Source of the DNA: Camelus ferus | Lineage: Eukaryota | Reading direction: 5' to 3' | Length of the DNA stretch: 64,000 nucleotides | Assembly: GCF_009834535.1 (NCBI RefSeq) | Contig: NC_045696.1 | Location: forward strand, 61,134,001 to 61,198,000 | Part shown: positions 1 through 42,330 of the stretch, one piece after another | Numbering within the stretch: position 1 is the first letter of the stretch | Layout: the number at the start of each line of letters is the position of its first letter | Notes under the pieces: generated by a model | The model's input: only the letters and a program-made list of their open reading frames with translations | Told to the model about the DNA's origin: nothing | The model's database searches: none | Program-made: the position numbers and the translations under genes

Positions 1-3000
1 GCGGTCCCCCACTTAAAATCCAGAGCTTTCTACTTTGCTTTTTCTTGTTAACTGGGAATAGAGTGAATTCTGTTGGTTTTTAACATCATGTAGGGTCCTG
101 AGCTCAGGATGACTCCGTTTTAACAAACCTTAGCAAGCAGTTTCCCGGGGCACTGCCGCCTTACATTTGCCCACAGGCCTAGGAGTAGGTGAGGCACAAA
201 GCCCACAGGCTGCACGTAGGATCAACAAAACTGTTTTCATGTTCATTTCTTTTACAATCAGAAGGGAAAAAGTCATTGCAAAAATAATAAATATGTAATC
301 ATGAATCCAGCCTTGACTGCAGTAATCCAACACAGTCATAAAATGTAATTTTTATTTTATTTCATTTTGGCAGAGGAAGGGGCACAGGAAGGCAAAAGTG
401 CCTAGGGCCCATGAAAGTCATTGTGTTGACTCTTTTCTGGATGGTTTCCACAAAAGTCTAGACCCAGTGATAAAGAGGTAAGTGTAGTGGTAGCAGTTCA
501 TAGATGACAATCAAAGTTCATTTTATATTATTTCACGTATCTTATACTGATTTTTCTCCCCGAAAACTATCTTTAACTGTTAAAAAATCACAGAGCTAAC
601 TTCTTTTTTATTCAACCTTTATGTTGACACTAAATTTTTCTGATACAATCTTACTGAGATAAAATAATGAATCCAGTTTTAACAAATCTTCAGTATTTGA
701 TTCTTTACTGAGATGGTGTTAGCTCCATTTATCAAGAGATGTTCTCTTATGTAATATGAACATCAAGGCTAAGACACTGCTCCTTCTTTGAAACGAGCTC
801 TTTTCTCCAAGGTGATAATTGCCAGTTTCAAAATACTTAATCAAAAGCGGAGGGTTTTCATGATTAGCAAAATTTAAAAACTCAGAGCATTAATAAGGTT
901 AATATTTAGAAGAAAGTGCTTCTCTAGGAGGTAGAGGGCTCTGACATATACATTCAGGGCCTCAAATTTAAACTTGTCAACTACATACACTAGTTTTTAA
1001 AAAATCCTATAAAGTGAATGTGCTTTTCAAATGAAAAGGCATCAGCAATTTTTTTTCAAGGAATTTAGAATAAAATTAAATTTTAATATTTTTTATTGGA
1101 TTTCAAGTGGCCAGTCTTTCCACTTGAGACTGCCCTGAGAGATACAAAAAGATGAAGACAGGTTCCTTTACTGGAGAATGAACAGTACCCGTGCAGAAGA
1201 AGACCACTCAGTCCCATGGCCTGGAGTGCACTCCTGGTTTGCCAGGCAGCACTGAGGCTAAATTAGCCCGAAGTTGGGTCTGGTCAATAAAACGTGTGCC
1301 TGGTCAGAGGTTTAGACATGCCTGGAGGGAAGCGTAAAAAAAATTCTACAATAGGGGATGGAGGTGCATGATTTCCACAGAGTGAGGCACCTGATTAGGG
1401 CTGCTTCATATATATATTTTTTTAACCTCAGGAATATAACTACTTATAGCTGTCTTCCTTATGAAGAAGAAGGCAAGGTTAAACTAGAATGGTGACCAGA
1501 CTGTTTTAAATTCCATGGTGGGAGGGAGTATTAACTCTTTCAACCTGACTTATAGCATTTTCTTTAAAGCAAATTAAATTTCTACCTTAAAAATTTTTTA
1601 ACATTTGTCCCTATCTAGCAGAAACCTAATGAGTGAATGCACATACTCTAGCCCTGGTCACATCATAACATTATGTTAATTTAATTGATCACACCAATTT
1701 TTTTTCAATTTCTTTGCCAGGCAGAATGTTTAAACGCCAGCTTGTTTTATTTAAAATAATTGACTGCACTCACTAGCTGCAGACAAAGCCTCAGTCAGCC
1801 AGTAGAGCGTACCCACCTTCTTAAATTTATCTTTAAGGTCCTTGAATCTTCTAAACCAAGAAGAAACCAAGAAACCTTGAGGGGTTTTTTTTCCCCTTAG
1901 GAACTGATTCTTTTTGGTTTTTAATAGCTCTCTAGCTGTTTTCAAAAAATTTTTTTAACCTCTGTGTGCACAACTAGTTGAAGGAATGTAGTTCACAGTG
2001 AGACAAACTCCCAGAGAATCTGGGTTTGAGTACAGTTCCAGGAGTTGACTAGATTCCCACCACTTTCTCTTCTTAAGAAAGCGATTTAGACTTTCAAGTG
2101 AGTGAGAATGACTATGAGTCAGCTCTAATTTATCAAAAAGAAAATGACTCACTTGTAAGTTTCTATACTTTATTAATAGTAACTAATTACAGGTGACACA
2201 CTTCTAAGCTGGTGGGGACAAATGCACGAGCTAAGTTGTAGAGCTGTGCTAGAAAGTCCTTGGGTTCTTATTTAACCCAAAACGACTCTGCTTCAGCTTT
2301 AAAAGGGGACTTCCTTTACTCAGAATTATGAGCAGATTTGTTTATAAGACTCCAAATACTATTCCTGCTTTCTCCTCAGTAAAGTTTCAAAACTCGGATT
2401 CTCTAGATAAGGTGTAGATTGGGAAACAGACACTATGCAATTATTATTAAGCTTGTTTCATTTTCCTTAGAACATAAATAAAAGCAATGCTCTGTCACCA
2501 GGCTGTGAATCACTAGGCAGAAGCTATTTACATGCCAAACTTACTAAACTTATTATAGGTTTTTGGCAATTAACATCTTTTCAGGACCTGCATCACCTTT
2601 GTTTAAAATCAATATCAGCGGCAAAATTTCATGATTGCATAGTCCAATTTTTTTAAGTAAAGATTTTTGCTTGTTTGTTTATAAAAGTAGTATAGTTCCA
2701 TTTTCAGCAACAGGGCAGAAGAGAGAAAGCCTTTAACTACAAAACCTGCAAATGCCAGAGGACGTGTAATAAATGTTTCCTGAATGCAGAACCAAGATCA
2801 GAAGAAAGAAAGGGAGACATTCAGGAGTGAAGGAGTTGAAAAACTAAGGTAAATAAGTGCTTTCGCAAGATTTGTAGATTTCTGAGATCTAGAGTTTGGG
2901 ATTTAAGGGCTGTCTGGGAAAGGAGACATAATCTTAGATCAGGACACTGTAAATTGAATATCTTCTGCATAAAGCTAAAACCCTCAGTGAAAATGCGGCC

Positions 3001-3049
3001 TAGAAAAATCAAAAAGAAAAAAGAAAAAAGAAAAAAGAAAGCTGAGTGA

Positions 3050-4940
3050 AAGATATAATTAAGAACAGAACTTAGTGATAGGAAAAGAACTGAAAACAGG
3101 ATTACTTACTGTAAAAGTTGGTTTTCTGAAGATAAAATAGATACACTCCTAGCAGAAAGAAGGAAATAATAAAGATTACAGCAAAGATAAATAAAATAAA
3201 AAATAGAAAAACAGTAGAGAGAATCAATGAAACCAAAAGTTGATTCTTTGAAAAGATCCAAAATTGACAAACTTTTAGCTAGATGGACTAAGGGGGAAAA
3301 AAAAAGACTCATATTATGAAAACCAGAAATGAAAATGAGGACAATACTACTGATTCTACAAAAATTAAAAAGATTCTAAGTGATTACTATGAACAATTAT
3401 ACACTGACACACTGGATAACTAAGATAAAATGATCAATGTGCCTCCTAGACATGAAAGCGCTATCAAGACAATCATGAAGAAATAGAAAATCCAAATAGA
3501 TCTAAAACTTGTAAGGAGATGGAACCAACAAAGAAAAACCCTGGCCCTCATGGCCTTACTGCTGAATTCTACCAAACACTTGAAGAACTAACACCAAACA
3601 TCAAACTTTTCCAATAAATTAAGCACTTTCTAACTCATTCTTTTAGGTGAGCATTACCCTGATACCAAACCCAGACAAAGACACTATAAGAAAAGAAAAC
3701 TACATCCCTTATAACAATATTCCTTATGAAAACTAATGCAAAAATCCTCAACAAAACAGTAGCAAGTCGAATTCAGCAGCATATTGAAAGGATTATACAC
3801 TATGACCAAGTCAGATTTATTCCTGGAATACAATGATGATTCAGCACACAAAACCCAATCATTGTAACATACCACATGAGCAGAATTAAGGGGGGAAAAT
3901 GACATGATCATCGCAACTGATACAGAAAAAGCATTTGACAAAATTCAGTAACACTTTCACGATAAAAACACTCAACAAACTAGGAGTAGAAGGAAACTAC
4001 CTCAATGTAATGAAAGTCATGTATGAAATTCAGGTGTGAAAGTCCCACAGCAAATACCACACTCATTGGTGAAGCACTGCAAATGTTTTCTCTAAGATCA
4101 GGAAAAAATCCAGGATGTCCACTTTTCTCCACTTCTATTCAACATAGTACTGAAAGTTCTAGTCAAATCAATAATGCAAGAAAAAGAAATAAGAGGCATC
4201 CAAACTGGAAAGGAAGAAGTAAAATCATCTCTGTTTGCAGGTGAGGATATGGGGAAATTGGAACCCTTGTACAGATTGGAGCCCTGTTGGTGGGAACGTA
4301 AAATTTTGTAGTCAGTATGGCAGGAATGGTATGGCATTTCCTTAAAAAATTAAGAAGAGAATTACTGTATGATCCAGCAAGTCCACTTTTGGATGTATAT
4401 CCAAAAGAACTGAAATACATTGAAGAGGTATTTGTATACCCATGTTCATAGCAGCATTACTTCATAATAGCTAAAACATGGGAGCACTCAAGTGTCCATT
4501 AGTAGATGAACGGATAACCAAATGTGGTCTTATAAGTACAATGGAATATTATTCAGCCTAAAAAGGAACAAAATCTGAACATATGCCACAACATGGATGA
4601 ATCTTGATGACAATTTGCTAAGTGAAATTAGCTAAGTCACAAAAAGACAAACGTTGTATGACTTCACAAATATGAAGTACTTGAACACTAGTCAAAATCA
4701 CTAAGACAAAAAGTAGAATGGTGGTTGCCCAGGGCTTGGGGGAAGAGGGAAATGGGAAGCTATTGTTTAATGAGTACAGAGTTTCAGTTTTACAGATGAA
4801 AAGAGTTCTAGAGATGTACAGTGGTGACAGGACCACAACATTATGAATGTATTTAATGTCACAGGACTGTACACTTAAAAACAGTTACGACGGTAAATTT
4901 TACGTACGCATATTTTACCACAATTTAAAAAATCGAAAAG
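3050..4940 (+). mobile_element. Old L1 (ORF2 fragment joined to an L1M 3' end)
   Basis: Typical ORF2 sequence (accaaaagttgattctttgaaaagatc, aaagcatttgacaaaattc) breaking at TTTGCAG (4240) into the ORF2 end/3'UTR (gtgaggatatggggaaattggaaccc...). Confidence 0.9.
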
Positions 4941-4979
4941 AAAAATGAATTGAGGAAAAAATAAGAAACTGAATATAAA

Positions 4980-5960
4980 CTATTTTAAATTGAATCATCA
5001 GTTAAAAGGAGAAAAAGCCCATCCCTCACAAAAGTTAGGTCAAGGTGATTTTATAGGCAATTTTACCAGATAGTCAAGAAATAGATAATTTCAATTTTAT
5101 ACAACCTCTTCCAGGGTTTAGTAAAAGAGGAAATGCTCCACAACTAATTTAGTTAGATTGGTCTAAAACCAAAACACAAATAATAATAATAATAAGAAAG
5201 GAAAACAACAAAGCAATAAATCTCAGTAATATATAGATGGAAACGTCTTACACACAATATTAGCCAGTCAAATTCAATATTTGATTTATAAAAAATACAT
5301 CATGATTACATCAGAAATACAAGAATAATATGAAACTGCTTTTAATGTAAATCACCATATAAACAGAAGGAAGGGAAAACATGATCATCACAACAGATAC
5401 AGGAAAAAAATTGGGTAAAATTCAATACTCACCCCTGTTAAAATTTCTAGCAAACTAAAAACAGAAATTAATTCCCTTAACCTGCTAAACAATATCAATA
5501 AAACCCTATAGTAAACATCATACTTAAATATTGGAAATTGGAAATATTTCCTTTCAAATTCAGAAGGAGTCCAAGATGCCAGCAGTAACTACTTGTATTC
5601 GACATTATGCTTGTAGTCTAGCCAGTGCAACAAAATGAGAAAAGTAAACAAAGATATGAAGGTATAGAGAAGTTCTTTTTGGTATGGAAGGGAAGAAACA
5701 AACTTGTGATTATTTGCAGATGATTTATTTGTTTATATAGAAAACCTCTTTAAATTTATAAATCTTTAGTAAAGTTTTACATTTATGATCAAAACTTTTA
5801 AAATAACTGCATTCCCATACATTAGCAAAAAAAAAAAAATTTTAATTATAGTGTTTATGATAGTGACAAATATAAAGTACCTAAGAATAAATCTAACAAA
5901 AGATGTGCTTAATCTTTGTGGACAAAGTTAAACAATATTAAAATATATTAAAGAAGATAT
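4980..5960 (+). mobile_element. Highly diverged L1 (L1ME-like) ORF2 fragment
   Basis: A-rich ORF2 relic including tttgcagatgat (FADD) near 5713. Confidence 0.75.
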
Positions 5961-6132
5961 ACTCATTATATTAAAAGTTGTAAAATATAGATCATTGAAA
6001 AACCAAAACCCCACGGTCTCACTATGCAGACAACTACATTGTTATGTATCTTCTAGGATTTTTTCCTATGCTTTAAAAAAGATTTAGTTCAAGTTACCTA
6101 GTATATAGGACTTTGCATCCTTTTAAAAACTT

Positions 6133-6584
6133 TACCAGGTATCAGTAGCATTTCTTCCTGCTTTTAAAAAGTTTGTAAATACAGCCTGAAGAAAGACAAA
6201 TTCTTTCTGTCTTGGATGGTGGTTCTTTCTCTTCCTCCTTTTGTAGGTGTGGAGGTGTTGGCTCAGTGGGACTGGGCCGCCAAAGGTCAACAGCAAGATC
6301 TTGGGTGTTGTGTGTAAATACTGCTTGCTGCATTCCGGAGGCCCCCTTTCCTGACAAAGCCATTCCCTCAGACTGAAAACTCCCACTGTTGCCATCCCCA
6401 TTTCCCTACAAACAGCAGCAGCACAGGGGCAGGCCTCTCTCCTAGAGGACTTCCTCCCAGGGGTCCTGCTGTAAACACCTATCTGTGAGATGAGGAGCGC
6501 TCACCATCGTGTGCACTCTACTGCTTCTGTGCTTGTTTTTCCTTAATAAACCTTACTTTATGTTTGTTCCATGTGTTGCCAGTA

Positions 6585-6585
<1 letters not shown>
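6133..6585 (+). mobile_element. Solo ERVL LTR (LTR41-like)
   Basis: 5' end resembles LTR41 as recalled; internal TATA-like gtaaata and AATAAA at 6545; sits within an L1ME relic. Confidence 0.6.

Positions 6586-6587
<2 letters not shown>

Positions 6588-6657
<70 letters not shown>
6588..6657. repeat. (GT)n(GA)n compound microsatellite
   Basis: Seen directly. Confidence 0.98.
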
Positions 6658-6658
<1 letters not shown>

Positions 6659-7446
6659 TATGTGCCCCTTATGAAACACTGGACATTGTCTTTCTACATT
6701 AAATAATACTCCATCACTGGGAAAGCCCATAAATAACTAACTGTTGGACATTTAGGCTGTTTCCCGTGCTTTGCTATAATAAATAAAGCCTTGATGTATA
6801 ATATTTTGTTTTGGTTTCATTATTTCAGCTCATTTCCTCGACATAAATCTCTGTAAGTGGGATTGCTGCTTAATGCTGTTATAAAAGTTTTTACATCATT
6901 CACACATACTGCCTAATTTCTCTGCAGAGAGGTCATGCCAATTCACAGCCCCAGTCAGTTTATGAGACAGTTAATGTTTCCCAATACCCTCTCCCTTTGA
7001 GAAAAATCTCGGCTTGGCAGTACTAATTTTAAATCTTGTCAAACAAGACTGTGTCCTTCTGAATCATTGTTTAAAGCCCTTGCTAATTGTGGGCTGAGTT
7101 GATCAGAGCCTCCTGCTCCAGCGTATCGGGAGGCTAGTGAGCCCCTTCACGCCGACGATGTAGGTTTATTTTGTAGGGGAGGAGGCGCAGTCTTAACAAG
7201 GCTCTAAATCTGGCGGTCTTGTTGTTAGAAGGAAGAGATTAGCGTTAGTTACATCAAAACTACGGTATTGTATTTGTCTTTCACCACCATTTAAGTAATA
7301 AATCTTAAGCTGCTTCTTCAATGGATTATTTAGCTATTTATGAAAACAGTTTGCAGGTAACCCAGACTAGTAAACTTGAGTAGGTTATTCTCAGGCAAGA
7401 AATCCTATGGCGGGGCAGGGCTATAGAGAAGTTCTTTTTGGTAAGA

Positions 7447-7617
7447 AAGTGGTTCCCAAAAGATAGGGTGCATCTGAATCCCGGCGGGAGCTTGTCAGAA
7501 TACATTCTGGGCTTTAACGCTCACCCGGATACCCCAGGTATGGGGCGGGATCCCGGAATCTGCCTTTTAACACACGCCCACAGTGACTCTATGGACCACA
7601 TTTTAAGAAACACTGCT
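7447..7617. mobile_element. MER5-type hAT-Charlie MITE
   Basis: agtggttcccaaa ... ttaagaaacactg termini; ggaatctgccttttaaca core. Confidence 0.75.
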
Positions 7618-7724
7618 CTTAAAAGTTTTTCATAAGCTAAAACCACCTTACTGAAGTTGTGAGGCACAGGAACGCAGGGTCTCGACCAAGCTTTGTTTTA
7701 AACAATATTCTCAGCCTTATTCTT

Positions 7725-7794
7725 CTTTATTTATTTCTATTGAATTATAGCCAGTTTACAATGTTGTGTCAATTTCTGGTGTACAGCACATCCC
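7725..7794 (-). mobile_element. Severely 5'-truncated L1 3' tip
   Basis: tattgaattatagccagtttacaatgttgtgtcaatttctggtgtacagc; TSD cagYcttattctt. Confidence 0.8.
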
Positions 7795-7959
7795 CAGTCT
7801 TATTCTTGTTACTCAAGCTTTGTTGGAATGAACTGACTGTGTCTTTTAGCAGAACGCGTGGCAGCCCTTTCGGTTTTCGTCAGATTGTTAGACAAAGGAA
7901 GCCTAACATTCTCACCCTGGCCAAATACAGAACCTATCTGCAAAGCAGAGAACTAAGGA

Positions 7960-8169
7960 TTTGACTGTGAAGAGTCCATATTTGAGAGAAACAGGGTTTT
8001 CCCACCCCTCCCCTCCTTTCTCTGTGACACGCCATCTTCCACTTTACGGAAAACACCAAAGCCATCTAACTTGATCTCCTTCGATGTCCAGGACCCTCTC
8101 CAGCAGGAAATGTCTGTCTTCACCATGCACTTTATCCTGCCCTCAAAGAAAGGCTACATCTTCACTGAA

Positions 8170-8200
<31 letters not shown>

Positions 8201-9425
8201 TGTGCGCCCCTGTCTGCCCCACTCCCTCCTGGGATGGCTGAGTCTGTCGCTTGTCTCCGTCGAAGAGTCTCTTTCTGCTTTGCTCCTTCTCTCCCACTGA
8301 CAATCATATTTAGGTCTTTCTTGACCTAAAATAAAAGTCTTTCGTTCCTATTGTGTCCTCTGTATCCCTATCTTTTGTTTCACCCACGAGCATCCTGAAA
8401 GAGGGGTCTTGTCTACAGCCATACCACCCTGAGCATGCCCCATCCCGTCTGAAAGAGGGGTCTCCACTCCCCACTTCTTCCTTTGTCATCATCTACTCTT
8501 TACACTTTCTTCCAGCTTAATCACCTCACAGAAAACGCTTTTCCCAAAAGTTACCCCAAATCTCCTTCCTAAGCACCAAAACCAATTTTCTTCTCAGTTC
8601 CTATTAATTTCTGAAAAATGTGGCACCATTCACTCATTCATTCAACAAATATTTCTTGAGCATCCACCTCAATATTCTCTCCTTGACCAGCGTCCCCTTG
8701 GTATTTGCACAGTGCTGCCCTCCTGGAGGCTGAAGGATTCTTCTCCGCACAACACTTTCCCTGTTCCTTCTGTTCCCTTGGCCTCTTCCCAGCTCCCAAG
8801 GAAGTCGAGCTTCTGGGGGTCACATCTCGAGCCCTTTCCCTCTCCCTCTGCACTTTCTCTCTGGCTAAATTGTTGCATCTCTTTTCACACCTCACACATG
8901 TACAATTCTCCCCTGACTTCACATCTATTTTCCAGACTCACCTTTCCAGCCATTTCCTGGCTGGCCTGTCAAATGCAACACATCCATGTCGAACTTTCTC
9001 TCAAACTATTTCATCTACCTTCCTTATGTTAATTGTAACCTCAGTCCCCCAGATACTCAAACCAGAAACCCGAGTCATCTTTGATTCCTTCCTCTTCCTT
9101 GTTGCCAACAACATAGTTTGGCACCAACTGCTGTTCCTCCCACCGATTTCTCCCACGTGGTCAGTTGTCCCCTGTGCTGTGTTATCCTCATCACTCGAAC
9201 TGTTGCAGCCGCCTCTTTTTTTGGGGGGGGGGGGATTAGATTTACTTATTTATTTATTTTTAATGCAGGTACTGGGGATTGAACTCAGGACACTAAGCAC
9301 ACACTCTACCACTTGAGCTATACCATCCCCGTCGCCCTGCAGCTGCCTCTTAACTGCTCTTCCTGACCCCTCGATTTCCTACCCTGCCTCAGCTTGCACA
9401 CACCGCTGCCAGCTTGATCTTCCGC
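7960..9425 (+). mobile_element. Fragmented L2 (with (AC)n at about 8170-8197 and a SINE inside)
   Basis: L2 hallmarks such as ccagaaacccgagtcatctttgattccttcctc. Confidence 0.6.
9218..9330 (-). mobile_element. tRNA-Ala-derived camelid SINE (Vic-1-like)
   Basis: Reverse of ggggatggtatagctcaagtggtagag...gttcaatccccagtacc; TSD tgcagcYgcctctt. Confidence 0.85.
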
Positions 9426-9429
9426 TCTG

Positions 9430-9884
9430 GGGACCAGGAAGGAGAGTTTCTTCTAGCCCCTCCGTAGCAGCGATCACTTTAGAAAGTGCTGGATTGCCTG
9501 CCCTAGGAGGCAACTGCTTGGATCCTAAGGGCCTGGGTCTAACTTTTTTCAGAGCCATGGAGACTGGTGGCTGGAATTGTTCCTGTCATCCTCTCACGAC
9601 GGATAAGGAAACCAAGGTCCTGAAACATGGGTCCTCAGAGCGAGGCCATGAGGAGCTGGCTGAGAAGAGTGTTTGAGTCTTGTCAGTGGGTCTGTCTGCA
9701 CTGAGAATGGTTTCTGTAGCCGGGAATGCCCATTACCAAGGCATTTCTACCCTGAAGGCGGTTTCTGTGGGAGACACTGTCTTCACTTCGAGTTCCCGAG
9801 TGTCAACGGACTTGTGATTAATTGACCTACGCTGCTGGGAGTAGGAATTTCTTTCATACTTCTCTCACCAAACACATTTTGACT
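9430..9884 (-). pseudogene. Probable third decayed S/T-rich exon, truncated against an L2 fragment
   Basis: Acceptor ttttattatttacag| at 9885; translations SQNVFGERSMKEIPTPSSVGQLITSPLTLG, VKTVSPTETAF, FPATETILSADRPTDKTQTLFSASSS, MTGTIPATSLHGS; separated from the previous exon by a 280-bp MIR-containing intron. Confidence 0.5.
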
Positions 9885-9929
9885 CTGTAAATAATAAAAA
9901 TTTTGATGCTTTATGGCTTTTCTTAGTTA

Positions 9930-10060
9930 ATAGTACCCCCGTTTCACAGATGAGGAAACTGAGATTTGGAGAGGCTGCCTTGCCCAGTATTGCATATCTT
10001 GTCAGTGATGGGCTGGGGCTCAAAGGTAAGAAAAACCCAAGACCTGGAAGGTGTGAGCTA
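9930..10060 (-). mobile_element. MIR
   Basis: Core cccgtttcacagatgaggaaactgag. Confidence 0.85.
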
Positions 10061-10164
10061 TTGCTCAGCTGCAGCACTGTCACTGAGTGCCTGGCCTCTC
10101 CACATTTTATGCTCTTCTAACCCTACCTCAAGGGAACTAAAGTAAAGGATGGTGACTAACTTGC

Positions 10165-12398
10165 CCTGAGTTCTTGGCCTATCACATGCAGGGTGGTCTC
10201 AGCCTGGGGACGAGTCTGACACATTTTCAGGGGCAAGTGACATCAGGCTATTTCTCCCAATTTCCTTGGTGTCTCCTTATCTGTGACGACGTCAGAGTGA
10301 GTTGTAATGGCGGTTGACCCCTTGTGGGGACCAGACTGCAGTCAGAAGACACATGTGTGGTATCACGTAAAATGGATCGTTTTAAAGACGTTCTTCCAGA
10401 GAAGGCACCTGCATCTAGGGATGGGGAGGGCACCAGAGCTGGCACCAAGGTGGGGCATCCCTCACTCTGAGTTCTGGAAGTCTCCATGGATGTCTCTGCT
10501 CCCACTGCAGTCAGAGAGCCGTGTCTGGGGGAGAAGTCCAGCCGTTGTCTTGGGCCTCCCAGGGCTGCAGGGGCGGCCAGTGTGATGCTGTTGCTCCTGC
10601 ATGGCCCTCTGGTGACTCCACAGGTATGAGGACGTGATGGGTGTGTTGTTGACTCAGGTGAAGGAGTGGTGGCATAGGTGGTGACGGGAGACAGCGTTCC
10701 CACAGAGTGCTGAAGTCACTCTCTGAAGAGCAAACAAAGCCTGGGTCTCGCTTGTGTATATGTGGGCAGAGGTTTATTCTTAATGCCTAGTTTGTTTGTC
10801 TTGAGTTATTTCTGGAACCAGAGGTGAGAAACCCGTAAGCCTTGTCATCCACCAAGTTTCACTTTTCTGCTGTTATTTCCTGATTTGCAGTGATTTCCCC
10901 AGGCTGTGCCGAGGGCAGTGTACAGTCAGGGAAAACACCCAACTGCAAGGATAAATTTGAAGAGAAAACTGACTCCCAGGTGGGCAGCGGGTGCCCTGAA
11001 AGGTGTGAAGAAGCTGGAGGAAAGAGGCAGAGCCACCAGTCTTGCCATCCTACGTGGGAGCCACAGGCCTCCTGTGTGTGTGTTAGTCTCGGTATCGGGT
11101 CAGAACCCCCTCCTCATCAGGTGCAGCTTCACCCCCTCTCACAGAGGAGGAAGGAGGTTATAGGAACTGTTGCTCACGCGCAGCTGGGTCTGCGCTTCCC
11201 AGGACCAAGGATGAAGACTGCGGTCCTCTCAGAAATTCTTGGTGACCAAAGGCTGACATTTCTGAGAGGTTCCTGGGCTGTGGGTGATTTCAGGCTTCTG
11301 CCCCTCTGTGGTCAGTGTTTGGGAGCTGCACCTCAGGGATGATTGGTTGGTGTTAGATGATGGATGTGATGGTTATTGGAGCCCCTGCTGTAGGAGCTGT
11401 GATGGATGACAACGGAGGTGGTGTCTGTGGTTTGTGGTTTCCTGCTGTTATTTTAGAGGAAATAGAAACTGTGACCAGTGTTGTGTCCGCTGGGTATTTT
11501 TCCTCCATTTTTCCTAGAATTCAAGATGAGGAAAGACGCTAACTCAAAATGCCCTTAGGATAACTGATCTCGCGGTATCTCCAGCAACTGGAATGACGGA
11601 TGGCGCACAGGAATTACTCCACAGACATCTGCTGGGTGAATGAACTCATGTATCCCTGTCCTCTGGTCTTTGGCTCTTCCAGCTGAGGTTGGAGACAGGG
11701 TGACAATGCACCTATTTCTTCTGTAACTGTCACGTTGGTCCAGGGATGGTCCCGAGGCCAAGAGGAGGCCAGCATGATGATTGCAGCCGAGGTGGTGTGA
11801 ACACCACTGCAGCAGAAGGTAGCCAAACTCCTGAGGGCCACCCTAGGCGGGGAGGGTGTGCCTGCCTTGATGGGGCCAGGGAGACACGATCTCCAAAACC
11901 AAGATGGTGGAGGCTGGAGGTGGAACTTCCGAGGAGAGGAGGGCGTGGAGGAAAAGGCAAGTTGGAGCTGTGCTGGTGAGCATATGATCAATGCTGGGGT
12001 TTTTTGTTACGCTTCTTGGGCGTAGTTCTAGGTCTTCTGGGGTTATCACCAGGGTAACCTTGGTGCTGCCACATCAGATGCTGGGAGAAATTAAATCAAA
12101 TGACCTGTGGCGGTATCAAAGGTGAAGAAATGGTGGGTCGATAGGCATTGTTTGTGGTGTGACTTCAGTGGGTACAGTTGGAAAGGAGAGATAAGGTTCT
12201 TGCTTTGGAGCCAGCTGTGAACGATGAATTCTAAATGAATTTCCTTGGTGTTATTAACCGAATGTTTCGTGGTCAGCTCAAAGGAGGTGGCCCCACTTAC
12301 TGATGAGGAAAAGGAAGAAAGGCTTGAGAAAGCTGTAATGACGCCAGTGACTTTTCCAGTACTCTGATTCCTCTGAACACAGGTCAGCTGGTTCTTAA
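10165..12398 (-). pseudogene. Decayed 2.2-kb Ser/Thr/Pro-rich (mucin-type, MUC16-N-terminus-like) exon
   Basis: Acceptor cttcattctcttctcccccaag| at 12399. The phase-1 frame is open for 101 codons (VKNQLTCVQRNQSTGKVTGVITAFSSLSSFSSSVSGATSFELTTKHSVNNTKEIHLE...). Further S/T/P-rich pieces occur in shifting frames (FPTVPTEVTPQT, LLSSEVPPPASTI, TPPPLSSITAPTAGAPITITS, GTLSPVTTYATTPSPESTT, GAETSMETSRT..PSPSLDAGAFSGRTS). It ends at AGG|GCAAGT (10164). Many stops and frameshifts; no interspersed repeat recognised inside. Confidence 0.65.
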
Positions 12399-12569
12399 CT
12401 TGGGGGAGAAGAGAATGAAGCTGGATAGCAATATCATATCAACTATTGTGATTTGGTGTTTGTCGTTTTTAACTGTGATTCCAGACAGATGTAGTAGACA
12501 GATGTAGACAGATGATGCCCCCAACAAAGTCCTTTCTGAGCCCGACAGGACAAGCAATGGAGACAAGGC

Positions 12570-13585
12570 CATGGAGTGGTTAAGAATGTGTATTCCACAG
12601 TCAAACTGATCACCATTTGCTGTATGATTTGGGCAAGCTACCTGGGGTCCTTATCTATAAAAGTGTGGAGATGGCAGATAATAATAATACGAGTTGGATA
12701 ATGTATGTAAAATGCTTAACTCGATATGTAAACTTAATAAATGGTACCATGTGCTGCCTGTTATCTTGGTCTCTACAAACTTCTGAGATCCTGTCAAAGG
12801 CAGCAATCCCTGTGACTGTGTCCTCTTTACGGCAGAACCTCTGCTTGCTGCTGTTTTCACAGCTCTCCACCTGCTTCCCAGAGCTCCACGGCTACCCCCG
12901 GGCCAAGCCACAGCACCTTCTGCCTGGACTCCCGCAGTCAGCTCCTAACTGGTTTCCATTTCACTCTTGCCACCTTCCAATCCATTTTCCACCACAATAT
13001 CCAGGGCAACCATTCCAAACTTCAAATCTGATCACGTCACTCCTTTACCTGAAACTCCTTACTGTCTGGTCTGCCCCTCTCAGTTCCTTAAACTCCACAA
13101 TCCAGTCCCTGGCTTATAAGCCATGCATCATCTAGACCTGTCTACCTCTTTCAGGTCCTCCAAAGGCTCATCAAGATCTTTCCTTGGTCGGCGCATCTTC
13201 CCCTACCTGGCTCCTGCTCCCCACCCCTGAAGTGCACCTCGCTTACTACTCAGCCTTTGGTCTCAGCTCGCATGTACAGCACTTCCTCAGAGAGGCCCTT
13301 GTGGACTCACTAATCTACATGAAGTTTCCCTGTTTTATTCTCATTGTAATGCTTGTTCAACATAACACCACACTTGTGGCGGGGAATTTTTCTGTAATTA
13401 TTTCCTGTCTCTCTGTATACCAGATCTGAGCTCTAGGAGGCTGGGCCCCAGTCTGTTCCATTCTTCACTGTCTTCACACAGTGTTGCCCCAGAACAATGT
13501 CAGGCACATAGGAGACACTCCTTAAATAGTTGTTTAATTAACAAATGTATGAATGAATGAATGAATGAATGAATGAATGAGTGAA
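12570..13585 (+). mobile_element. MIR followed by an L2 3' end with (GAAT)n tail
   Basis: tgatttgggcaag/cttatctataaaa; tctgatcacgtcactcctt; caggcacatagg...aaatgtatgaatgaatgaatg. Confidence 0.8.
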
Positions 13586-16500
13586 TATCGCAGGTGTGAG
13601 TGCTTCTGTTCTTCCCCCATTGATGAGCCAGGCTTGTGTGCTGCAGTGCAAACCAGTGCTGACCAAGGTGTCAGGGAACCTGCCTTCTAAGCCCAACTGC
13701 CCTGCTTTTGGGGACCTTGGGGGCCATGGGACCTGACACAAGCTTTGGAGGCAGGAACCATGACTTCGTTATCTTCGTGCCCAGAGCACTTGGCACAAGC
13801 AAGTGAATAAATACTCCACGCTCCTTCTGATTCTGAATTCCCCCAAGCCCACTGTCAACAGGACTTTGGGAACTCAAACTGCAGTTTTAGTTGGAGGCAT
13901 CTATACAGAACATAGATGCCTATGCAGACTTTAAAGATGCAGACGTGGAGGACTGAGCTGCCTGCCACGCAAGCCAGTGCCCTCTGTATAAGCATGGCCA
14001 CGACTATAGAGGCCTGTGAGCAAACACGACGCCCAGTTCCTGGGGCCGCTTTGAAGTCTCAAGGAAAACGTTGACTATTTAAACCTCTATGAAGTGCTGA
14101 CAAATTGAGTTCAACACAAGTCCTCGGCGCTGTGCTGGGAACGGGGACACGACAACGACTAAGTGTCTGTTTGCCATGAATTCAGTCTGGCAGAAGGGGA
14201 AAGTTTGGAACTAGGGAGAGAGATGGCCTGGAAATTCTTCAGTCCTGGCCTTGGGAGAGGTGGGTCCGCGCGCTCCGTTATGCGAAGCATTCAGCAGTGA
14301 CATGAAATCAAACAGCCACAGTAGCAAACCACTTGTCTGAGCACACAAAAGGCCAACTGCTTCTTGGCCTCTCCTGGCAATGGAGGCATGAATCGCCGGC
14401 GTGTCACACCCTGCCGGGATAGCCTCAGCCTCGGGAGCTGAGCCCAAACTGAAGGCTTGGAGGAGACTGCGCAAGGAGCCGTGCGGCCGCTGTGTCGGCA
14501 AGTGGGGCCTCTGCCCGACGGCGGGCCTGGCGTTCAGCGTCCGCTCAGCCAGAAGCCAGTGATTCTTAAAATGTGGTCCATAGACCACATTCTAAATAAA
14601 CCAAGTGTGCCCTTGCAAATCCACAGGAAGGACGGGGGTGGCTTTGTAGAGCTCATAGATCCTTGGATGAATGGGCATGCATCCGAGCCAACAGAGGTGC
14701 CCATTCCATGCTGGCTCCAGCCCTCCTGCCGGGTCTCCCGGCCCTAAATGCAGCGGTCCCTCTTTCAAACAAGAGGTTATGGCTCTTCTACTTAAACCAG
14801 ATACTGCCTTGTTTTATCTTCCCCACAATCCTATGAACTAGCTTCTTTCCATTTGACTAATTTTGCCAATTGAAGACACAGAGCTAAAGGTTCTTTTCTC
14901 ACGTCCTCTGGGCTGGTAAGTGGCAACCTTGAGAGGGGTTTACTGATGTGAAGTTCCTGCTCTTTGCTGTACATTTTGCTGAGCCATTGGCCTAAATTTG
15001 ATTGATCCTCCTGTCAGGACCCCTTGTTCAGGGATTCTCTCCTTTTGGTGTCCCCCAGCACAGGGAGGGTTTCCTGGGGCGGGACGGCGGCCTGTGAAGG
15101 TTTGGATGCCCTTGCTGGCGAGTTGCGTACGCCTGTCCCAGGCCGACACAGAGGAGAGGTTCTCTGCAAGGTGGGGTGGGAGAGCCTCCCCCTGGGCGCC
15201 CCCGAGACTGCGGATCTCCACTGTCCTGCACTTGCCACAGTCTCATGACCCCTCAGTGGTGCTCAGGGCGGTGGGTGGCCCCTCAGTTACTGGGCTACTG
15301 ATTGTATTGGAGACTAAGGCTTATTTTGATCCAGTTTCCTTGCAGAAGGTGTGGAATCAGGGCTGCCAGGCTTCCTTCTGAATCATTCCTGCTGGGAGCC
15401 ACCGGGAGGCCCCAAGTCTCTGCCGGCTCCCTGTTCAGCCCACCTCTGTCCATGCTTCTTCTCCCCTTCCTCCTTTGAGAGCCAGGGCTTTTCCCTAAGA
15501 AAGCCCTTTCCCTGCAGCACCTTCGTGGAAACCCTGAGGTTCCTCCCTCCAACCTGGGGCGGAGGCTCCAACACCTGCTCCAGGGATGATCCAAGCACAG
15601 GCGAGGGTGCTGACAGCAAGTGTGGAAACAGACCCTAGATTCCAATATAGGCAAGTCACCCATAACCCCCGATCAGGGAGCCAAGGCAACAGGACTGACC
15701 AGTTCCCACTCTCTCAGAACCCGTGCCCCAGGCAGATGTAGGGGGCTCACTTGTCCATCCCTGCGGAGACTACTGTTCCCTCCAAGGTCCTCTTACTGCT
15801 CAATCACATGCCTGGGGGGCCACTTCCCACCCCACTTCCCCCTCCTTTCCTGGCCCTGCTCCGTTCTGTGCCTTTTAACCACACACAGGACTCAGCGCTC
15901 CAGAGCAGCCCTGCACGGCTTCAGGGCCACTGTGGGGACCCCCTTCCACCTTCATGGTCCTCCTTTTGCTCACACCGCAGCACTCCCTGCCTCGGCTTCT
16001 CCTACCTACTCCCAGCCCGGTTCTGGCCCCTGCGGGCTCCTCTCCACCCACTTTCTGGCTCTTCCTGAGCTTGACAACCCAGGGCTGAGTATGCAGCTGG
16101 TATTGAACACTTTTTGTGTTGACTTTAAATCACAGAATGTCAAAACTTAGGAACTGAGGAATCCACAAAACGTCAAAACTTAGGAATCCAGAGGTCAAGC
16201 CATCTACCACCCTGCTTTTCATGTAGGGGAACTGAGGCTTGGAGAGAGATACAATATGACCTGGTCACAGGACCAGATCAGTTGGTGGCAAAGCCAAGAC
16301 TGTTCCCAGGGTCCCTAAATCCAAGGTGCCTTCCCCCCATTGCCCATGATTGTGACTCCCACAGACAGCCCTTAGTCTATTTTACCCCCAGGAATAGACC
16401 ATGAGGGGCTGGCAGCTGCAAGCTCTGAAGACTCCTTCTGGCCTCCGTTTCCTTACTGTGTGATGAGTAGGGAGGATGTGGGGGTTGGAGCCTTGTGGAG

Positions 16501-16703
16501 GTGGTGAGTGTTCTGTTTGCTCTTAACCAAGACCTTAAACATTTCCACATCTCTGGCATCGTGCCTCTTACTACCTGTAAGAGAGTGTGTTTCTTCTGAC
16601 CCACTCCCCAAGAAATGATTCCTTGGGTGAAGGCTTCCCCAGGCCTGCTGAGGAGGGGAAGGAGCTGTGATAATATCTTTGGCTTGGGGTCCTGACTCCT
16701 CAC

Positions 16704-16777
16704 CCTCTCCTGGGCCCCAGAGGCTCAGAAGACTCCGACACCCAGAAATACAGAATGAAACTTGGTTCGGGGGCCAC
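16704..16777 (-). pseudogene. Decayed first (signal-peptide) exon of a mucin-like gene
   Basis: Minus strand reads GTG GCC CCC GAA CCA AGT TTC ATT CTG TAT TTC TGG GTG, then after one frameshift AGT CTT CTG AGC CTC TGG GGC CCA GGA GAG G|gtgagg. This gives (M)APEPSFILYFWV..SLLSLWGPGE, a hydrophobic leader ending in a phase-1 GT donor at 16703. The start codon is GTG, not ATG. Confidence 0.6.
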
Positions 16778-16869
16778 AGGGGCAGCTTGGAAAGTGGTGG
16801 GGAGAGGACTGGGGGGCCCAAGTGGAACTTCTCCAAAGGGCTTTGCTTCCAGGTCCACCCCCAGCTCCC

Positions 16870-16877
16870 TATTTAAA
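16870..16877 (-). promoter_or_regulatory. TATA-like box (TTTAAATA) upstream of the mucin-like exon 1
   Basis: Only AT-rich box in a GC-rich stretch, about 95 bp upstream of the putative start codon, in the correct orientation. Confidence 0.45.
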
Positions 16878-19428
16878 GGGGAAGGAGGTGTGGGGGAGGC
16901 CAAGGCCAAGGCCAACACCAGGGCCGCAAGTTCTGCCCTGAGAGCAAATTGCCCAAGAGGAGGCTGTTAAACCCAAGATCAGAGGCAGAAGCCAACTGCC
17001 TGCACCGCAGCTGCCTTCTAGCCCCGCCGTATTTCTCCCAGCCCTGCGGCTTCTTTTCTTCCCTGGTCCCTTCCTTTCGGTCTGCCTGTCGCCTGTGATT
17101 TCCTTCTCTCTTTGTATCTACTTTCCTTCAATTCATCTATTTCTCACCTGTCTTTTCCTCTGACTTTACATCTTTCTGTAAGTTTTTCCTCTGATTCTGT
17201 TACCCAGATTTCCTGTTTTTCTGTCATTCTCTCTCCTCAACTCTCTCTCCCTCTTTCTACAGCTCTACCTGCCTGTCTCTTTTGACAAAAAAAGCCCTGG
17301 TTCCCTCAATGGGTTTCCCCAAACCAGGCCACTCCTGCCCCACTCCCCAAACCCATCTCCCTGCTTTTCTCTGTCTCTAATTCTGCTTCCTGCCTCTCTA
17401 GCCACCTCCCTCTCCCCCTCCCTCCTTCCACCTTGTCCCATTTCTGTCCATTCAGCTCTCTCTCTCTCTTTCCATGACAGGCCCCAGCTCCTTGAATGGG
17501 CTCCGTGGAGTCAGCCACCCCCAGCCCGAGAATGCTGCCTCAGGTGCATCACTTACCCAGGACCACTAGCCAAAGAAGGCAGGAACATAAGCAGCTCAGG
17601 AACATGCAGGGCACCCTTCTCCGGTGGGCCCCTCTCATGGCTCCAGAAAGAATCCCTCAAGCTCCCCAGGGCAGCTCCTCAGCACAGAAGTGGTAGTGTG
17701 AGGAGCAGAGGTGAACCTGTCCCCACCGGCCGCTGGCCTGAAACAGGTGTATTTCCCTGAGGGGCCAGAGTACCAGGGAAGAGGACAAAAGAAGGCGTGG
17801 CTCCATGCCAATCATCCTTGCCCCGTCTTTTCTTTCCTCAGTCTCCACCCCCTTTCCCCCACGAGGAAAAAATTTTAAAAGCACCAATACACCCATTGCT
17901 CTGTTCCTAGTCAGCCTGAGCCAAGTAGGGCGAGGGACAGGAAGGGCATGTAGGGGACTAGAAACCAGGACACACTGGAAACAAGAGGGCCACCCTACTG
18001 CCTGGGATACTGGGCTGCCCCTGTCTGGCAGGCACTTTGGATTGCCACAGCGGGAGCCCCTGGGTCATTTCAGAAGAGAGGGCGGGGCAGAATGGGAAAG
18101 AAAGGGCCAAGAGGGAGTGAGCTTGGGGCTGTATGAATAGGAGAAAGAGTGAAATCTGAGGGGACCCTAAGAAACATGGGAAGTGGGGGGAGCAATGTGG
18201 GTGGGAGATAGGAATCAGAAATATCCTTTTGGGGAGGAATGTTGGGCTCAGAATATCTGCTAGTCACTAGGCACAGGGCAGACCCTTGCCCAAGGGTGAA
18301 TTTCCTCTTTCCAGGAGAGGGCACATAGAGCCAGGGTTCAGAAAGCCCGAGGCAGCCTGGGAAAGTTGCTTGAGGGATGAGGGGTGGGAAGTGGGGTTGA
18401 GGGTTCGACCTGGGGAGAAGGAATTGTGACCCCACGAGGAAGTGGGGGCTGTTTCTGGAGAACTTGGAGCTCAGGTCACCCATTTTAACCTCTTGGGACT
18501 TGCAGGCGTAACCAAGAAGGGACAGGAACCCCCAACAGGGTGTGTCAGGCAGAGTCTGAAGTTGAGAGAAGGTAGCTGGTGTACTGCTGCAAAGGACAAT
18601 GGAGACCTTCCCCGGGCTTTTGCCATGGTGTAAAGCCCTGCTTCTGGTCCCTTAAGACTTGGTTCCCTGAATGTGGAGTCTGTGGGGTGATTGGTCCCAG
18701 AGCAGGGAGCTCAGGCTCTCAGAGACATGCACAGCTCAGGAAGAGAAACCAGCATTTCCACATTCCCAGGGAGAACCTGGAGTCATCCAAAGATGGCTGG
18801 ACAAGGCTCCAAAACCCTATTGGCTATTTGCTTTCTGAAGCTGAATTGCCAATTACAGCTGAAACCCCAAAACTGGACCTTAGCTATAATGCAAATACTA
18901 CAGAGAAATAGCATGGCACCCGCATCAGTCCCACAACCTCTGTATGGATGAGTTGATCCCATCCTTTCCTGGGAGCAGGAAATTCATAAAGATAAAGAGG
19001 AATTTTAAGCATAGAGCAGTGGGACAGGATACGAGGAAGCTATCACTGGAGAGGATATACATGGACAGCAAGGCCTACTTAATCATTCTTTTGCGTCAGT
19101 TCTTACTCATGATTTCTTTCTATTAACATATTGTGTGTTTTTTTGGTGACACTCTCTGGATCACAGTTTCCCAACTACAGAGGAGGAAAAAGCATTCCAG
19201 GTTTAGACCAAAGTAAGAATTGGACATCTTGTCGACCTAACACAGCTCACCTCCCACTTTCCAATGCAAGGGACACTGGAGGTGCAGAGCATTCTCCAGA
19301 GGCTTCTGTGGTGGCCAAGACTCCAGCTGGGTATCAGGCTACCTGAGCTTGAATCCCAGCTCTGCCACCCAAGGCAAGTCATAGCCTCTTTGAGACTTAT
19401 TTCCCTCATCTATAAAATAGGAATAATA

Positions 19429-32464: not shown

Positions 32465-33544
32465 TGTGAAAGTATTTCAATCTACAATGGAACCTGAGGA
32501 TATAACTTAAGGGAAACAAAACTTAAAAACTGACAGACTGATTTTTCATAAATGCCTCATTAACAGAAACTGGTAATATTGGTATTTTCTTAAATGATAG
32601 GGAGTTGCTCAGGGGTGACTTCATATCAACCTTGAGAAATTCTGCTTATGGTTTCCATAGGCATAAAGAAGAAATGGTCTCACAAAATGAACTGACTTGA
32701 GCTCTGTTGTATAACTGGACTGGTTGCATCTGCTTGGGGAATTTTCAAAGCTGGTCTCTGTTTTTTATTTCAGGAGACTCTAACTGAATCCTCTCTATAC
32801 ATTCCCTGCCCATAAACACAGGCTACCCCAACCCCTCAGCAGACTTAAATGTAGCTTGCTACAGTTTGCATGTTTTTTTTTTATTGAGTTATAGTCATTT
32901 TACAATGTCGTGTCAATTTCTGGTGTACAGCCCAATTTTAGTCATACATGAATATACATATATTCGTTTTCATATTCTTTTTCACCATGAGCTACTACAA
33001 GATCTTGAATATAATTCCCTGTGTTATATAGTATATATTTGTTTATCTATTCTATATATACCTGTCAGTATCTACAAATCTCAAACTCCCAGCCTGTCCC
33101 TTCCCACCTTCCTCCCCTCTGGCAACCACAAGTTCGTATTCTATGTCTATCAGTCTGTTTCTGTTTTATATTTAAGTTCATTTGTCCTCTTCTTCTTCTT
33201 CTTCTTTTTTAGATTCCATATATAAGTGATATCATATGGTATTTTTCTTCCTCTTTCTAGCTTACTTCACTTAGAATGACATTCTCCAGGGACATTCATG
33301 TTGCTGCAAATGGCATTATGTTGTCATTTTATGGCTGAATAGTATTCCATTGTATAAATATACCACAACTTCTTTATCCAGTCATCTGTCGATGGACGTT
33401 TAGGTTGTTTCCATGTCTTGGCTATTGTAAATAGTGCTGCTAGTTTGCATGTTTTTAATTGCAGTTCTTCTGCTATTCTGGAATAAACTCATCTTTTTGA
33501 CAATTTTGAGCTTGCCTCATTTTATCTTTTTATTTAGGTTAATA
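32465..33544 (+). mobile_element. ERV 5' LTR (interrupted by an L1 3' end)
   Basis: Direct repeat of 37060-37521; begins TG; AATAAA near its end. Confidence 0.9.
32878..33441 (-). mobile_element. Younger L1 3' end inserted into the ERV 5' LTR
   Basis: Poly-T head, L1 3'UTR sequence, TSD agtttgcatgttttt at 32863-32877 and 33442-33456. Confidence 0.9.
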
Positions 33545-33549
33545 TTCCT

Positions 33550-33567
33550 TGGCATCAGAAATTGGAT
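33550..33567 (+). other. Degenerate primer binding site (tRNA-Leu-like)
   Basis: TGGCATCAGAAATTGGAT just after the 5' LTR; 14/18 match to TGGTGTCAGAAGTGGGAT. Confidence 0.55.
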
Positions 33568-34215
33568 TCAAAGGAAATGACCTCAAAGGACAATGACTCT
33601 TGGAATTGAGCAAGGTGCCTGCACTGAACCCCTTGTGCTCATCACTTCCATGAGTTGTTCATGACTTGCAGTTTGGTGAGTCTCCTCTTGGATTCTGAGC
33701 TCCCTCCCTTTGGTTGAGCTCTCCGACTTTATGACTTTATTTGGAATCTGTTTAAAGGATTTGTCCTTTTTGGTGAGTAGTCATTTGTTTTCTTATTGGG
33801 AGCATGCTAGAATTTTGGTATAATTCCTTTGGGATTCTTGAGAGCAAAAATGAATGAATGAATGAGTAAATAAATAAGTAAATAATCAGTGGGTATGGGT
33901 CAAACAAATAAACACTACTAAGAGTACTTCCCACCTCCTGATGAGAAACTTTGTTTTCAGAGCAAGACTCCCATGAGAGCATAAACTGGTCATGGATAGG
34001 CCAGATTGACATTAGGTTGCCTGCAATTTCCGTGCAACACGGGACACCTGGTTACGGGTCGAACAACTAGGGCAAAAGGCCATCAGTCAGGAAAAAAAAA
34101 ATAAAGAGAATCCCATGAAAGGCACTCTGTGAAACCAAACACAGCTCTCACCCTGAAACAACCCCCTTCAGACTATTAAGGAATTTTCTTTTGCTTTCAA
34201 GAAACCCTCTGAGAT

Positions 34216-35500
34216 ATGTGATCCCAGTCATCTGAATGGTCTAAGGGTGGCCTTCCTTGAAACACCCCGGCTGGGTTTACATTAAAAAAAATTATGGTTT
34301 TTCCTTATGTGCATTTTTGACTAAATGGACCAACCTTACTAAAGATGACTTAGAACTTCAAGGGCCATTTGAGGAACTTTAGATCTCCCCAAACTTGTTT
34401 TTCTATGGACTAAATTAGAAGGCTGAGGCAAGAGAACTAAATAATCAGAATGGAATAGCTATTTTAATTGGTAATGAGAGGCTTCTAAAGGATTCAGAAT
34501 TCTAAAACTGCCTCTTTACAAAATACTATTTCTAAGTTAACAAAAGCAAATAAACAACTGAAAGGAGATTTTTAAAAAGCATTTGAGGCCTCTTCCTCGG
34601 CAGCACCAGCCAAGGTTTCCCATAATCTCACTGCTCCACCTTCTCTACCACCTTTGCCTTCTTCCAACCCCTTCCTTTATCTGAGCTCCTTTCTTCTCTA
34701 GTGCTGTAACCTAACCAACTGTACCTGCTAAAATTCTCTTTTGTAAAGTTAGGCCTTCTGAGGATCCTGCTAAACCTTAATTTCTTAAGTCCCATGGACC
34801 AAAGCTGAATTTAGAGCTACAGTAAAAGATTTTCCCAAAGTCACTGTGGATCCTCATAGATTTGCTGAAGAATTCAGTATTGCAATTCAACTTTATCAGC
34901 CTGACTTCTCTGATCTTTATCCATTAGTCCACATGCTTACTGGAGAAAGTTAAGCCCAGCCTTGGATGAAAACTGCTAGTTGAGAAAGCCCTGAACCATC
35001 TTTAGAATTCCAAGTAAGTCAACCACCAGCTCTTTTATATGACCAAGCTGGTACCATAGCCAAAAGGTTGCATCTTGCCATTCCAAGGACTTTCCCTAAA
35101 GTGGTAGACTAGAACAAAATTCATGCATGCACCCCAAAGCCTGCCAAATCTATTCATAATTACTACAGCAGGCTTCAAACTATTTTTAAAGAAAATTCTG
35201 GACTCCCTGTAGACATTGAATCCACTAGGGTGACCTTTAATTTAATGTTTATAAATTATTTAAACAGAGACCTACTTCTGTTAGTCAAGAGAACCCACAT
35301 AGAATGGGAAACAATATCTACCCCTGATCTTGTCAATCTAGCTAACCAATTAGCCTATGCCCTAGAAAATGATTCTAAAAGAAGGGCAAATAAAATCTAA
35401 ATCACTAAGGCCAACTAGTGGAATCTCCCAAGCAAACTCTTCCTACCATACTCTGTCATGATGGTAAACAACCTGGCCATGGAAAAGGGACTGCTACAAA
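34216..35500 (+). pseudogene. gag: ERV gag remnant (MA, CA, degenerate zinc knuckle)
   Basis: PWTKAEFRATVKDFPKVTVDPHRFAEEFSIAIQLYQPDFSDLY...IHNYYSRLQTIFKENSGLP...EWETISTPDLVNLANQL from 34792 with in-frame stops; CHDGKQPGH.(W)KRDC knuckle relic near 35454. Confidence 0.9.
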
Positions 35501-36049
35501 CTTAAAAGGTTTAGATGATTACAGCTTCCCAAGGGTCAAGGCTCAAACTCATCTCAATGATGGGGATCCAAGGAAACACAGAGACCGTTTCCCATTCTAC
35601 AATATGTCCTGGTATAGTGTTATCAGTCATAATTCCAGCTATTACCTTAAAATATTACATATCATAAAAATAACCAAATTTACTTGTTAATTGCATCATC
35701 TTGTGTGTATGTGAGCTCTCACCAGATATTTAACAATGGCTGTTTTTAAGTCTTTTGTCACTCACCATCTTCAAAGAGATCCATGGGAAAGACTCTGACA
35801 AGTACTCTAAAATGCAGGTTTCTGATGACTTTACAATCATAACACTGAGCTGGGTAAGAATTTCTAAAACTTTTATGAAACACTGATTCATAAAGCTGCT
35901 AACCCAAGATCAAGCAAAACAAGAATTAATTACATAAGAATGAATAAACTGATAAAGATGACTATATTTCTGATTATAAAACCCCCTCTTTCATTCCAGG
36001 GAAAAGAATCTGAGTAAAGGGACCCAACTATGCCTTATTCTTAGAAGAC

Positions 36050-36670
36050 ACTAGGTATTTATTTTTATGTGGAAGAAACGTATGTTCTACACTTCCCCTT
36101 AATTGGAAAAGACATTATGGGATCATTGCCCTCACCCCTATTGTTAAAATTAGAAAAACTCTTCCTTCTACTTGATCGGGGGACTTCCTCCTATCATCTT
36201 AAAAGGACATGTTGGAACTAGGAAGGTTATCCTTTTGGGTGGATGCCTACGTGTGACCCTATAGTAGATAGAAAAGGTTTGGTGCTTACTTTCCCCAGAG
36301 CCTTTTTAGTTTGGATTGGAGTAGCAGACCTTGAAAAAGCAATTCATAATCTTTCCATAATTACATCTGCCACTTTCAGTGCTTCTGTCTAAGCTTCTGA
36401 ATATGGACAAACCTTGCAGAAGCAGTCCTACAAAACTGCAGACCCTAAATCTCCTCACTACTTAGAAAGGAGAACCTGTGCCCTCCTTGGAGAAGAATGC
36501 TATTTTTATGTTGAGAAAACAACACAATAACTAAAAATAATGAAAGACAATATCAGGCTGCCAGAAGGCAGTAGGAAAAACTGGTTGAGAAGTATTTTTC
36601 AATCAACAGCTGTCATTGAGATTTGGTCCTTAGTTTAATCTTTTAATTTAAATTTCTGCTGTCTGTTAGT
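36050..36670 (+). pseudogene. env: ERV env remnant (C-terminal SU and TM)
   Basis: YLFLCG...LPLNWK; fusion-peptide-like RAFLVWIGVADLEKAIHNLS; ISD/CX6CC relic LAEAVLQNCR..LNLLT..KG.TCALLGEECYFYV near 36414-36512. Confidence 0.85.
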
Positions 36671-42200: not shown

Positions 42201-42330
42201 CTGAGGCTGGGGTAGGGACTGAGGCTGGGATGGGACTGAGGCCGGGGTGGGACTGAGGCTGGGGTGGGACTGAGGCTGGGGTGGGACTGAGGCTGGATAG
42301 GGACTGAGGCTGGGGTGGGACTGAGGCTGG
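42201..42330 (+). repeat. G-rich 17-bp minisatellite (CTGAGGCTGGGGTGGGA) x about 7.6
   Basis: Units counted directly. Confidence 0.97.

Follow-up and report, generated by a model that had tools for sequence, protein, structure and literature searches.

The MUC4 locus and its first intron

The window analysed here, a stretch of 64,000 nucleotides from Camelus ferus (G000:C1:61134001-61198000), lies between MUC20/MUC4 and TNK2, and 200 kb around it were surveyed. In the left flank, NIDO and VWD exons (L025) and a giant tandem S/T exon (L026) belong to one gene on the minus strand, which is MUC4. On the plus strand of the same flank are two genes that, from their translations, we take to be RUBCN-like and MUC20-like. 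The right flank contains a tyrosine kinase that carries a Mig-6 domain and is presumably TNK2. VPS8 and EPHB3 were considered as synteny neighbours and rejected, both being 9 Mb distant. Frameshifts in MUC20 exon 2 (L023:~110, plus strand) and in the MUC4 tandem exon (L026, minus strand) are either real or assembly errors.

MUC4 is a membrane mucin laid out as a signal exon, a phase-1 intron, and a large PTS exon 2. Its protein is described as containing PTS, NIDO, AMOP, VWD, and EGF domains (PMC3056801), and its exon 2 is described as carrying tandem repeats (PMC3505144). The intact exon at 17557-17638 is the real first exon of this host gene, and it sits 680 bp upstream of a TATA-like box on the same strand. 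An untranslated region is present upstream of this signal exon. The exon was overlooked in the initial annotation, which had read positions 16877 down to 9430 of the minus strand as a free-standing fossil mucin gene with a TATA-like box, a leader, and S/T-rich exons of its own.

Exon 2 of MUC4, the tandem PTS exon, has a phase-1 acceptor at L026:9062. Phase and position suggest that exon 1 joins this exon, and because exon 1 is intact and the exon 2 acceptor is in phase 1, intron 1 would enclose the entire finding (Table 1). The 2.2-kb stretch at the center of this study, 10165-12398, has the same strand as MUC4 and an acceptor phase equal to that of the junction between exons 1 and 2, a setting that fits a pseudoexon and lends no support to a free-standing gene.

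Table 1. Coordinates of the features in the window (positions alone) and at neighbouring loci (with locus handle)
Feature	Position	Strand	Remarks
MUC4-type exon 1, coding part	17557-17638	-	intact; 82 nt, 27 codons + 1 nt; encodes a signal peptide; followed by a phase-1 donor, GTAAGT
MUC4 intron 1, putative	1-17556, plus 939 nt past the window	-	~18.5 kb in total; from phases
TATA-like octamer TTTAAATA	16870-16877	-	read 16877-16870
Possible relic leader exon	16704-16777	-	74 nt, from GTG to a G/GTGAGG donor; two repairs needed
Donor-spanning stretch	16677-16728	-	42/59 identical to leader-exon donor L021:4394
Multi-copy repeat tail with (AATG)n	13504-13600		by copy number
Splice acceptor, strong, phase 1	12399-12421	-	18/20 pyrimidines
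Probable PTS pseudoexon	10165-12398	-	sense strand A/C-rich; single copy; no Pfam match in any of six frames
Open frame of 101 codons behind the acceptor, closed by a stop	12091-12398	-	counted after the split phase-1 codon
Open S/T/P-rich frame with ETSM motif	10248-10715	-	155 codons; no homologue found
Multi-copy short repeat	9927-10021		between the two S/T-rich segments
Small S/T-rich segment	9430-9810	-	weak acceptor, 2 stops
Somatomedin-B-like gene: TATA box and leader	L021:4276-4393	+	intact
Somatomedin-B-like gene: cysteine-rich exon	L021:9309-9548	+	stop after 80 codons, no clear donor past the cysteines

The two multi-copy repeat fragments in the intron are presumably a MIR (9927-10021) and an L2 (13504-13600), as had been proposed. 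The local blastn used for repeats missed most old repeats, and any argument from the stretch being free of repeats was therefore abandoned.

Structure, coding signal, and relatives of the 2.2-kb stretch

The excess of A+C on the sense strand begins near 12500 and stops near 9550, and 18 of 434 control windows exceed the A+C share of the one placed over the stretch. The best mucin-like path through 10165-12398 has 24% S+T and 33% S+T+P, with 6 frameshifts and 13 stops, and departs from the frame of the 12399 acceptor at about 12226. Nine of the 341 strong acceptors in the examined sequence stay open for at least 101 codons, as this acceptor does. At 10165 the donor reads GC instead of GT. No tandem or internal repeats were found in the stretch, Pfam recognized no family and no transposon domain in any of the six frames of 10150-12399, and the stretch is single-copy in the genome, so that neither mark of a transposable element was found. 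The earlier description of a non-repetitive, S/T/P-leaning stretch of 2.2 kb behind a phase-1 acceptor is upheld, as is the view that it is a genomic copy rather than a retrocopy. The further exon proposed at 9430-9810 fares less well: it is S/T-rich, in phase 0, with both of its stops in that frame and a poor pyrimidine tract before it, and it may simply prolong the dead exon instead of being one in its own right.

The coding test relies on a frameshift-tolerant path with codon frequencies taken from the MUC16 gene of this genome. The resulting score of 23 is reached by none of 60 base shuffles, 60 block shuffles, or 100 first-order simulations, and by three and none of 100 second-order simulations in two sets. 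With codon frequencies from MUC4 and MUC20 instead, the fit is poorer and non-significant (15/100 and 22/100 simulations). Among 450 control windows, 19 outscore the stretch; sixteen coincide with genuine exons of MUC4, MUC20, or TNK2, and the other three fall in other parts of the GC-rich TNK2 region. A local version of the path ranks 12067-10267 first among the mucin-codon segments of the window (score 32.5 vs 16.1 for the runner-up), and one long GC-rich stretch in L029 alone outscores it among the 16 flank loci tested. Three-base periodicity is non-significant (22/200) and weaker than in a control taken from elsewhere in the intron; the stop count of the path (18/100) and its S+T share (21/100) fall within the range of the simulations. 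Because the stretch had been singled out visually within 64 kb, the p values overstate the signal. With one codon model significant and the other not, the coding signal appears modest and is suggestive only.

Relatives were sought with HMMER in 1.84 billion proteins, using the frame from the 12399 acceptor, which holds 447 of the 742 path codons. The initial annotation had expected the gene to be still intact in other mammals; all 10 proteins matched are fragments, none longer than 227 aa, one of them a camel ab initio model and the other nine fragments of 63-227 aa with 42-62% identity. Assembled runs are the source of eight of these nine and an NCBI assembly that of the ninth; jointly they span a large part of the stretch. 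For six of the nine the alignment uses at least two camel frames, the homology extends beyond both proposed exon ends, and identity is 61% (68/111) in the putative mucin frame vs 60% (246/411) outside it. P0009 spans the 12399 acceptor and P0002 begins in the putative frame, and both exit that frame and terminate within about 125-152 codons. Judged from the alignments, the pattern would be that of a neutrally diverged orthologous intron of other mammals, and a mammalian origin of the fragments is likewise suggested. Three of the nine (P0003, P0005, and P0007) map to 10930-11142 on the minus strand, a part that could be somewhat better conserved, for example as regulatory DNA.

Among shorter proteins, the search with the 12399 frame found P0001 alone. 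The searches for homologues of 1305-3725 aa in this frame and of 330-2000 aa in the ETSM frame found none, each a weak negative, and the ESM Atlas returned nothing above 0.84 for the 101-codon frame. Two metagenome scans found no orthologous DNA. No intact spliced orthologue is among the matches, which cover two of the three frames, and any exons that are distant or unannotated, only thinly. The Camelus ferus predicted protein EPY80514.1 shares 46 identical residues with the window at 10465-10602 on the minus strand. This ab initio model fuses the piece, outside the mucin frame, to MUC4 exon 2, which is probably a prediction artefact; gene models of this kind need caution at the locus.

Taken at face value, a conservation that is the same within and outside the frame, homology past both ends, and the lack of a protein homologue in these searches are what DNA that was never coding would give, that is, old unique intronic sequence or an unrecognizable ancient repeat, in which the A/C skew mimics S, T, and P and in which acceptor, open frame, and leader arose by chance. 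The non-significant MUC4/MUC20 model and periodicity, and the control windows richer in A+C, point the same way. We consider this account rather unlikely, as against it stand the standout local score, the strong in-phase acceptor near the start of the skew, the single copy, and the absence of a Pfam match over 10150-12399.

The putative leader and the somatomedin-B-like neighbour

Upstream of the stretch, the TATA-like octamer is present as first described; it is weak as a signal, since 80 such octamers occur on the minus strand of the window. The same holds for the proposed signal-like leader exon, of which the 74-nt piece and its good donor are real. Its unrepaired frames reach best 9-residue Kyte-Doolittle means of 1.59 and 1.22, with no strong hydrophobic core, and unrepaired ATG-leader-donor look-alikes are common (59 rows in 304 kb), a frequency that also favours chance in the never-coding account. 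The start codon and signal peptide of an independent mucin are thus not in evidence here, given the GTG and the weak hydrophobicity before repair. From 9430 as far as MUC4 exon 2, no transmembrane or C-terminal exons of its own were recognized, the Pfam search spanning 10150-12399.

The donor region of the leader piece matches the leader-exon donor of a somatomedin-B-like gene, which lies on the plus strand upstream of the MUC20 leader (L022:6365), about 67 kb away, and is presumably SMBD1. This match, which spans only ~55 nt and was spotted after the fact, is the best of 1262 donors (2095 vs 1581), is reached by none of 2000 shuffles (E 3e-4), and exceeds those to the MUC4, MUC20, and MUC16 leaders (688, 1234, and 985, respectively). 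Aligned over the full exon, the two leaders are marginally similar (22/500 shuffles). A TATA-like box and a phase-1 donor are also common to both. Unlike the relic leader, the neighbour has an intact hydrophobic leader (L021:4333-4393) and a cysteine-rich exon, for which the MUC4 intron yielded neither a counterpart nor any other somatomedin-B remnant. This exon has Somatomedin_B as its three best Atlas clusters (0.89, 0.85, and 0.80; a lead only), and Pfam gave no match on it. The gene may encode a small secreted protein or be a pseudogene.

At human 3q29, SMBD1P is listed alongside MUC20 and MUC4 (PMC10170684). SUSD2, which carries somatomedin B, AMOP, and VWD domains, is reported to share a common ancestor with MUC4 (PMC6696261), and an old SMB-type 5′ end of MUC4 is therefore conceivable, if unproven. 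Together with the donor match, the box, and the shared phase, this ancestry lends itself to another account, in which the box, the leader piece, and the PTS exon are the remains of a 5′ unit in its own right, either a former promoter and start of MUC4 or a paralogue of the local mucin cluster later enclosed by MUC4 exon 1; the leader of this unit and that of the somatomedin-B-like neighbour would be related. We regard this as unlikely in view of the short, post hoc match, the marginal whole-exon alignment, the missing somatomedin-B remnant, and a leader that needs two repairs and lacks cross-species support.

Comparison with MUC16 and the likeliest reading

The initial annotation had likened the stretch to the N-terminus of MUC16 by motifs such as ETSM and had proposed a lost paralogue or partial duplicate that is intact in other mammals. 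The stretch and the N-terminal PTS region of MUC16 do have in common an S/T/P-rich, non-tandem character and a phase-1 acceptor, and the codon model that fits the stretch better is the MUC16-trained one. The MUC16 SEA array lies on C22 and the window on C1, with none of 36 genome-wide SEA matches near C1:61.1 Mb. The region compared (C22:20.00-20.04 Mb) extends from the MUC16 leader to ~1.7 kb short of the first SEA match; its exon is the camel one, partly decayed, whereas the motifs of the initial annotation referred to human MUC16. Within this region blastn, nhmmer, and tblastn found no significant match to the stretch (best tblastn E 0.085). None of seven HOXD70 DNA alignments to MUC16, MUC4, and MUC20 exons beats all shuffles, and the best one to the first giant MUC16 exon, at 10685-10456, is within the shuffle range. 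One of 30 Smith-Waterman protein comparisons, to a MUC16 exon, beats 200 shuffles, and its retest p of 0.009-0.015 is the chance expectation. Compared by blastp with the matching camel MUC16 segment, the frame with the ETSM motif gives E 0.29, and genome-wide protein searches did not return MUC16. No significant likeness to MUC4 exon 2 or MUC20 was found either. A MUC16 origin, for which no long homologue was found, is thus largely refuted and very improbable. The stretch behaves as pseudoexons do, which are known elements, and neither membership of MUC16 nor the status of an independent mucin gene is supported.

The camel MUC16 gene provides a parallel of a different sort. Its first giant PTS exon, from L039:3629 down to L038:5400 on the minus strand of C22, is interrupted in frame by stops at L039:941 and 128; the decayed tail of this exon still scores as PTS (0/100 simulations). 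The following exon begins in phase 1, so that the giant exon could be skipped. This exon may be decaying in the present genome, an assembly error being the alternative reading of the stops. A leader exon of MUC16 is seen upstream at L039:8796.

The stretch 10165-12398 is most likely a mucin-type PTS exon that has decayed and is preceded by a phase-1 acceptor. That it once belonged, perhaps down to 9430, to MUC4 itself or to its forerunner as a non-tandem PTS exon and died long ago is a proposal whose chances we judge evenly balanced. The position in MUC4 intron 1, the matching phase, the acceptor at 12399 with its open codons, the score under the MUC16-trained model, the top local score, the extent of the A+C excess, the single copy, and the broken relatives count in its favour, as does a phase-1 PTS exon in mid-decay in MUC16 of the same genome. 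The GC donor, the lack of mucin similarity, the non-significant MUC4/MUC20 model and periodicity, the unremarkable stop count and S+T share, the equal identity in and out of frame, and the homology past both ends count against it. Compared with MUC4 exon 2, the stretch is intronic, non-tandem, and broken, with no detectable similarity.

Phase 1 is found at the end of MUC4 exon 1, at the start of the pseudoexon, and at the start of the tandem exon 2. Since all junctions are in phase 1, exon 1 could bypass the dead exon and join exon 2 in frame. The tandem exon may have taken over the role of O-glycosylated domain, upon which the older exon would have been skipped, with its decay dating to about the time when the other sampled mammals branched off or earlier. 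The dead exon is now predicted to be spliced out with intron 1 and to yield no protein, and its inclusion would truncate the message at the stop after 101 codons.

Pseudoexons and unitary fossil exons in introns keep their acceptor, while their frame decays and their conservation across species is neutral. The stretch likewise has a kept acceptor, a decayed frame, and neutral conservation, and it is unusual among pseudoexons in its size (2.2 kb), its apparently great age, and the lack of an intact counterpart among the matches. No description of a fossil exon in MUC4 intron 1 was found in the titles and abstract openings searched. Such an exon would add no new protein or function, and its interest lies in being a trace of the replacement of a sugar-coated mucin domain. 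The PTS domains of mucins evolve too fast for tracing, and a dated fossil exon in MUC4 would directly record a domain swap through exon skipping. It would also link the little-studied somatomedin-B-like neighbour to the origin of MUC4.

A broader scenario, which we hold to be quite doubtful, is that MUC4 swapped its entire N-terminus early in mammals. The old promoter, leader, and non-tandem PTS exon would then be fossil in intron 1, and the somatomedin-B-like gene would be an inverted sister copy of the old 5′ end from a SUSD2-like ancestor. If this were true, then together with the decaying MUC16 exon it would make phase-1 exon skipping a general route by which membrane mucins renew their glycosylated domains.

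Elsewhere in the window, a decayed stretch resembling an LTR retroelement occupies 33500-37500, with matching ends near 32500 and 37100, seen by eye only. An inverted near-duplicate of ~200 bp is formed by 54650-54890 and 55585-55790, and a G-rich tandem array with 7.6 copies of a 17-bp unit is present at 42201-42330.
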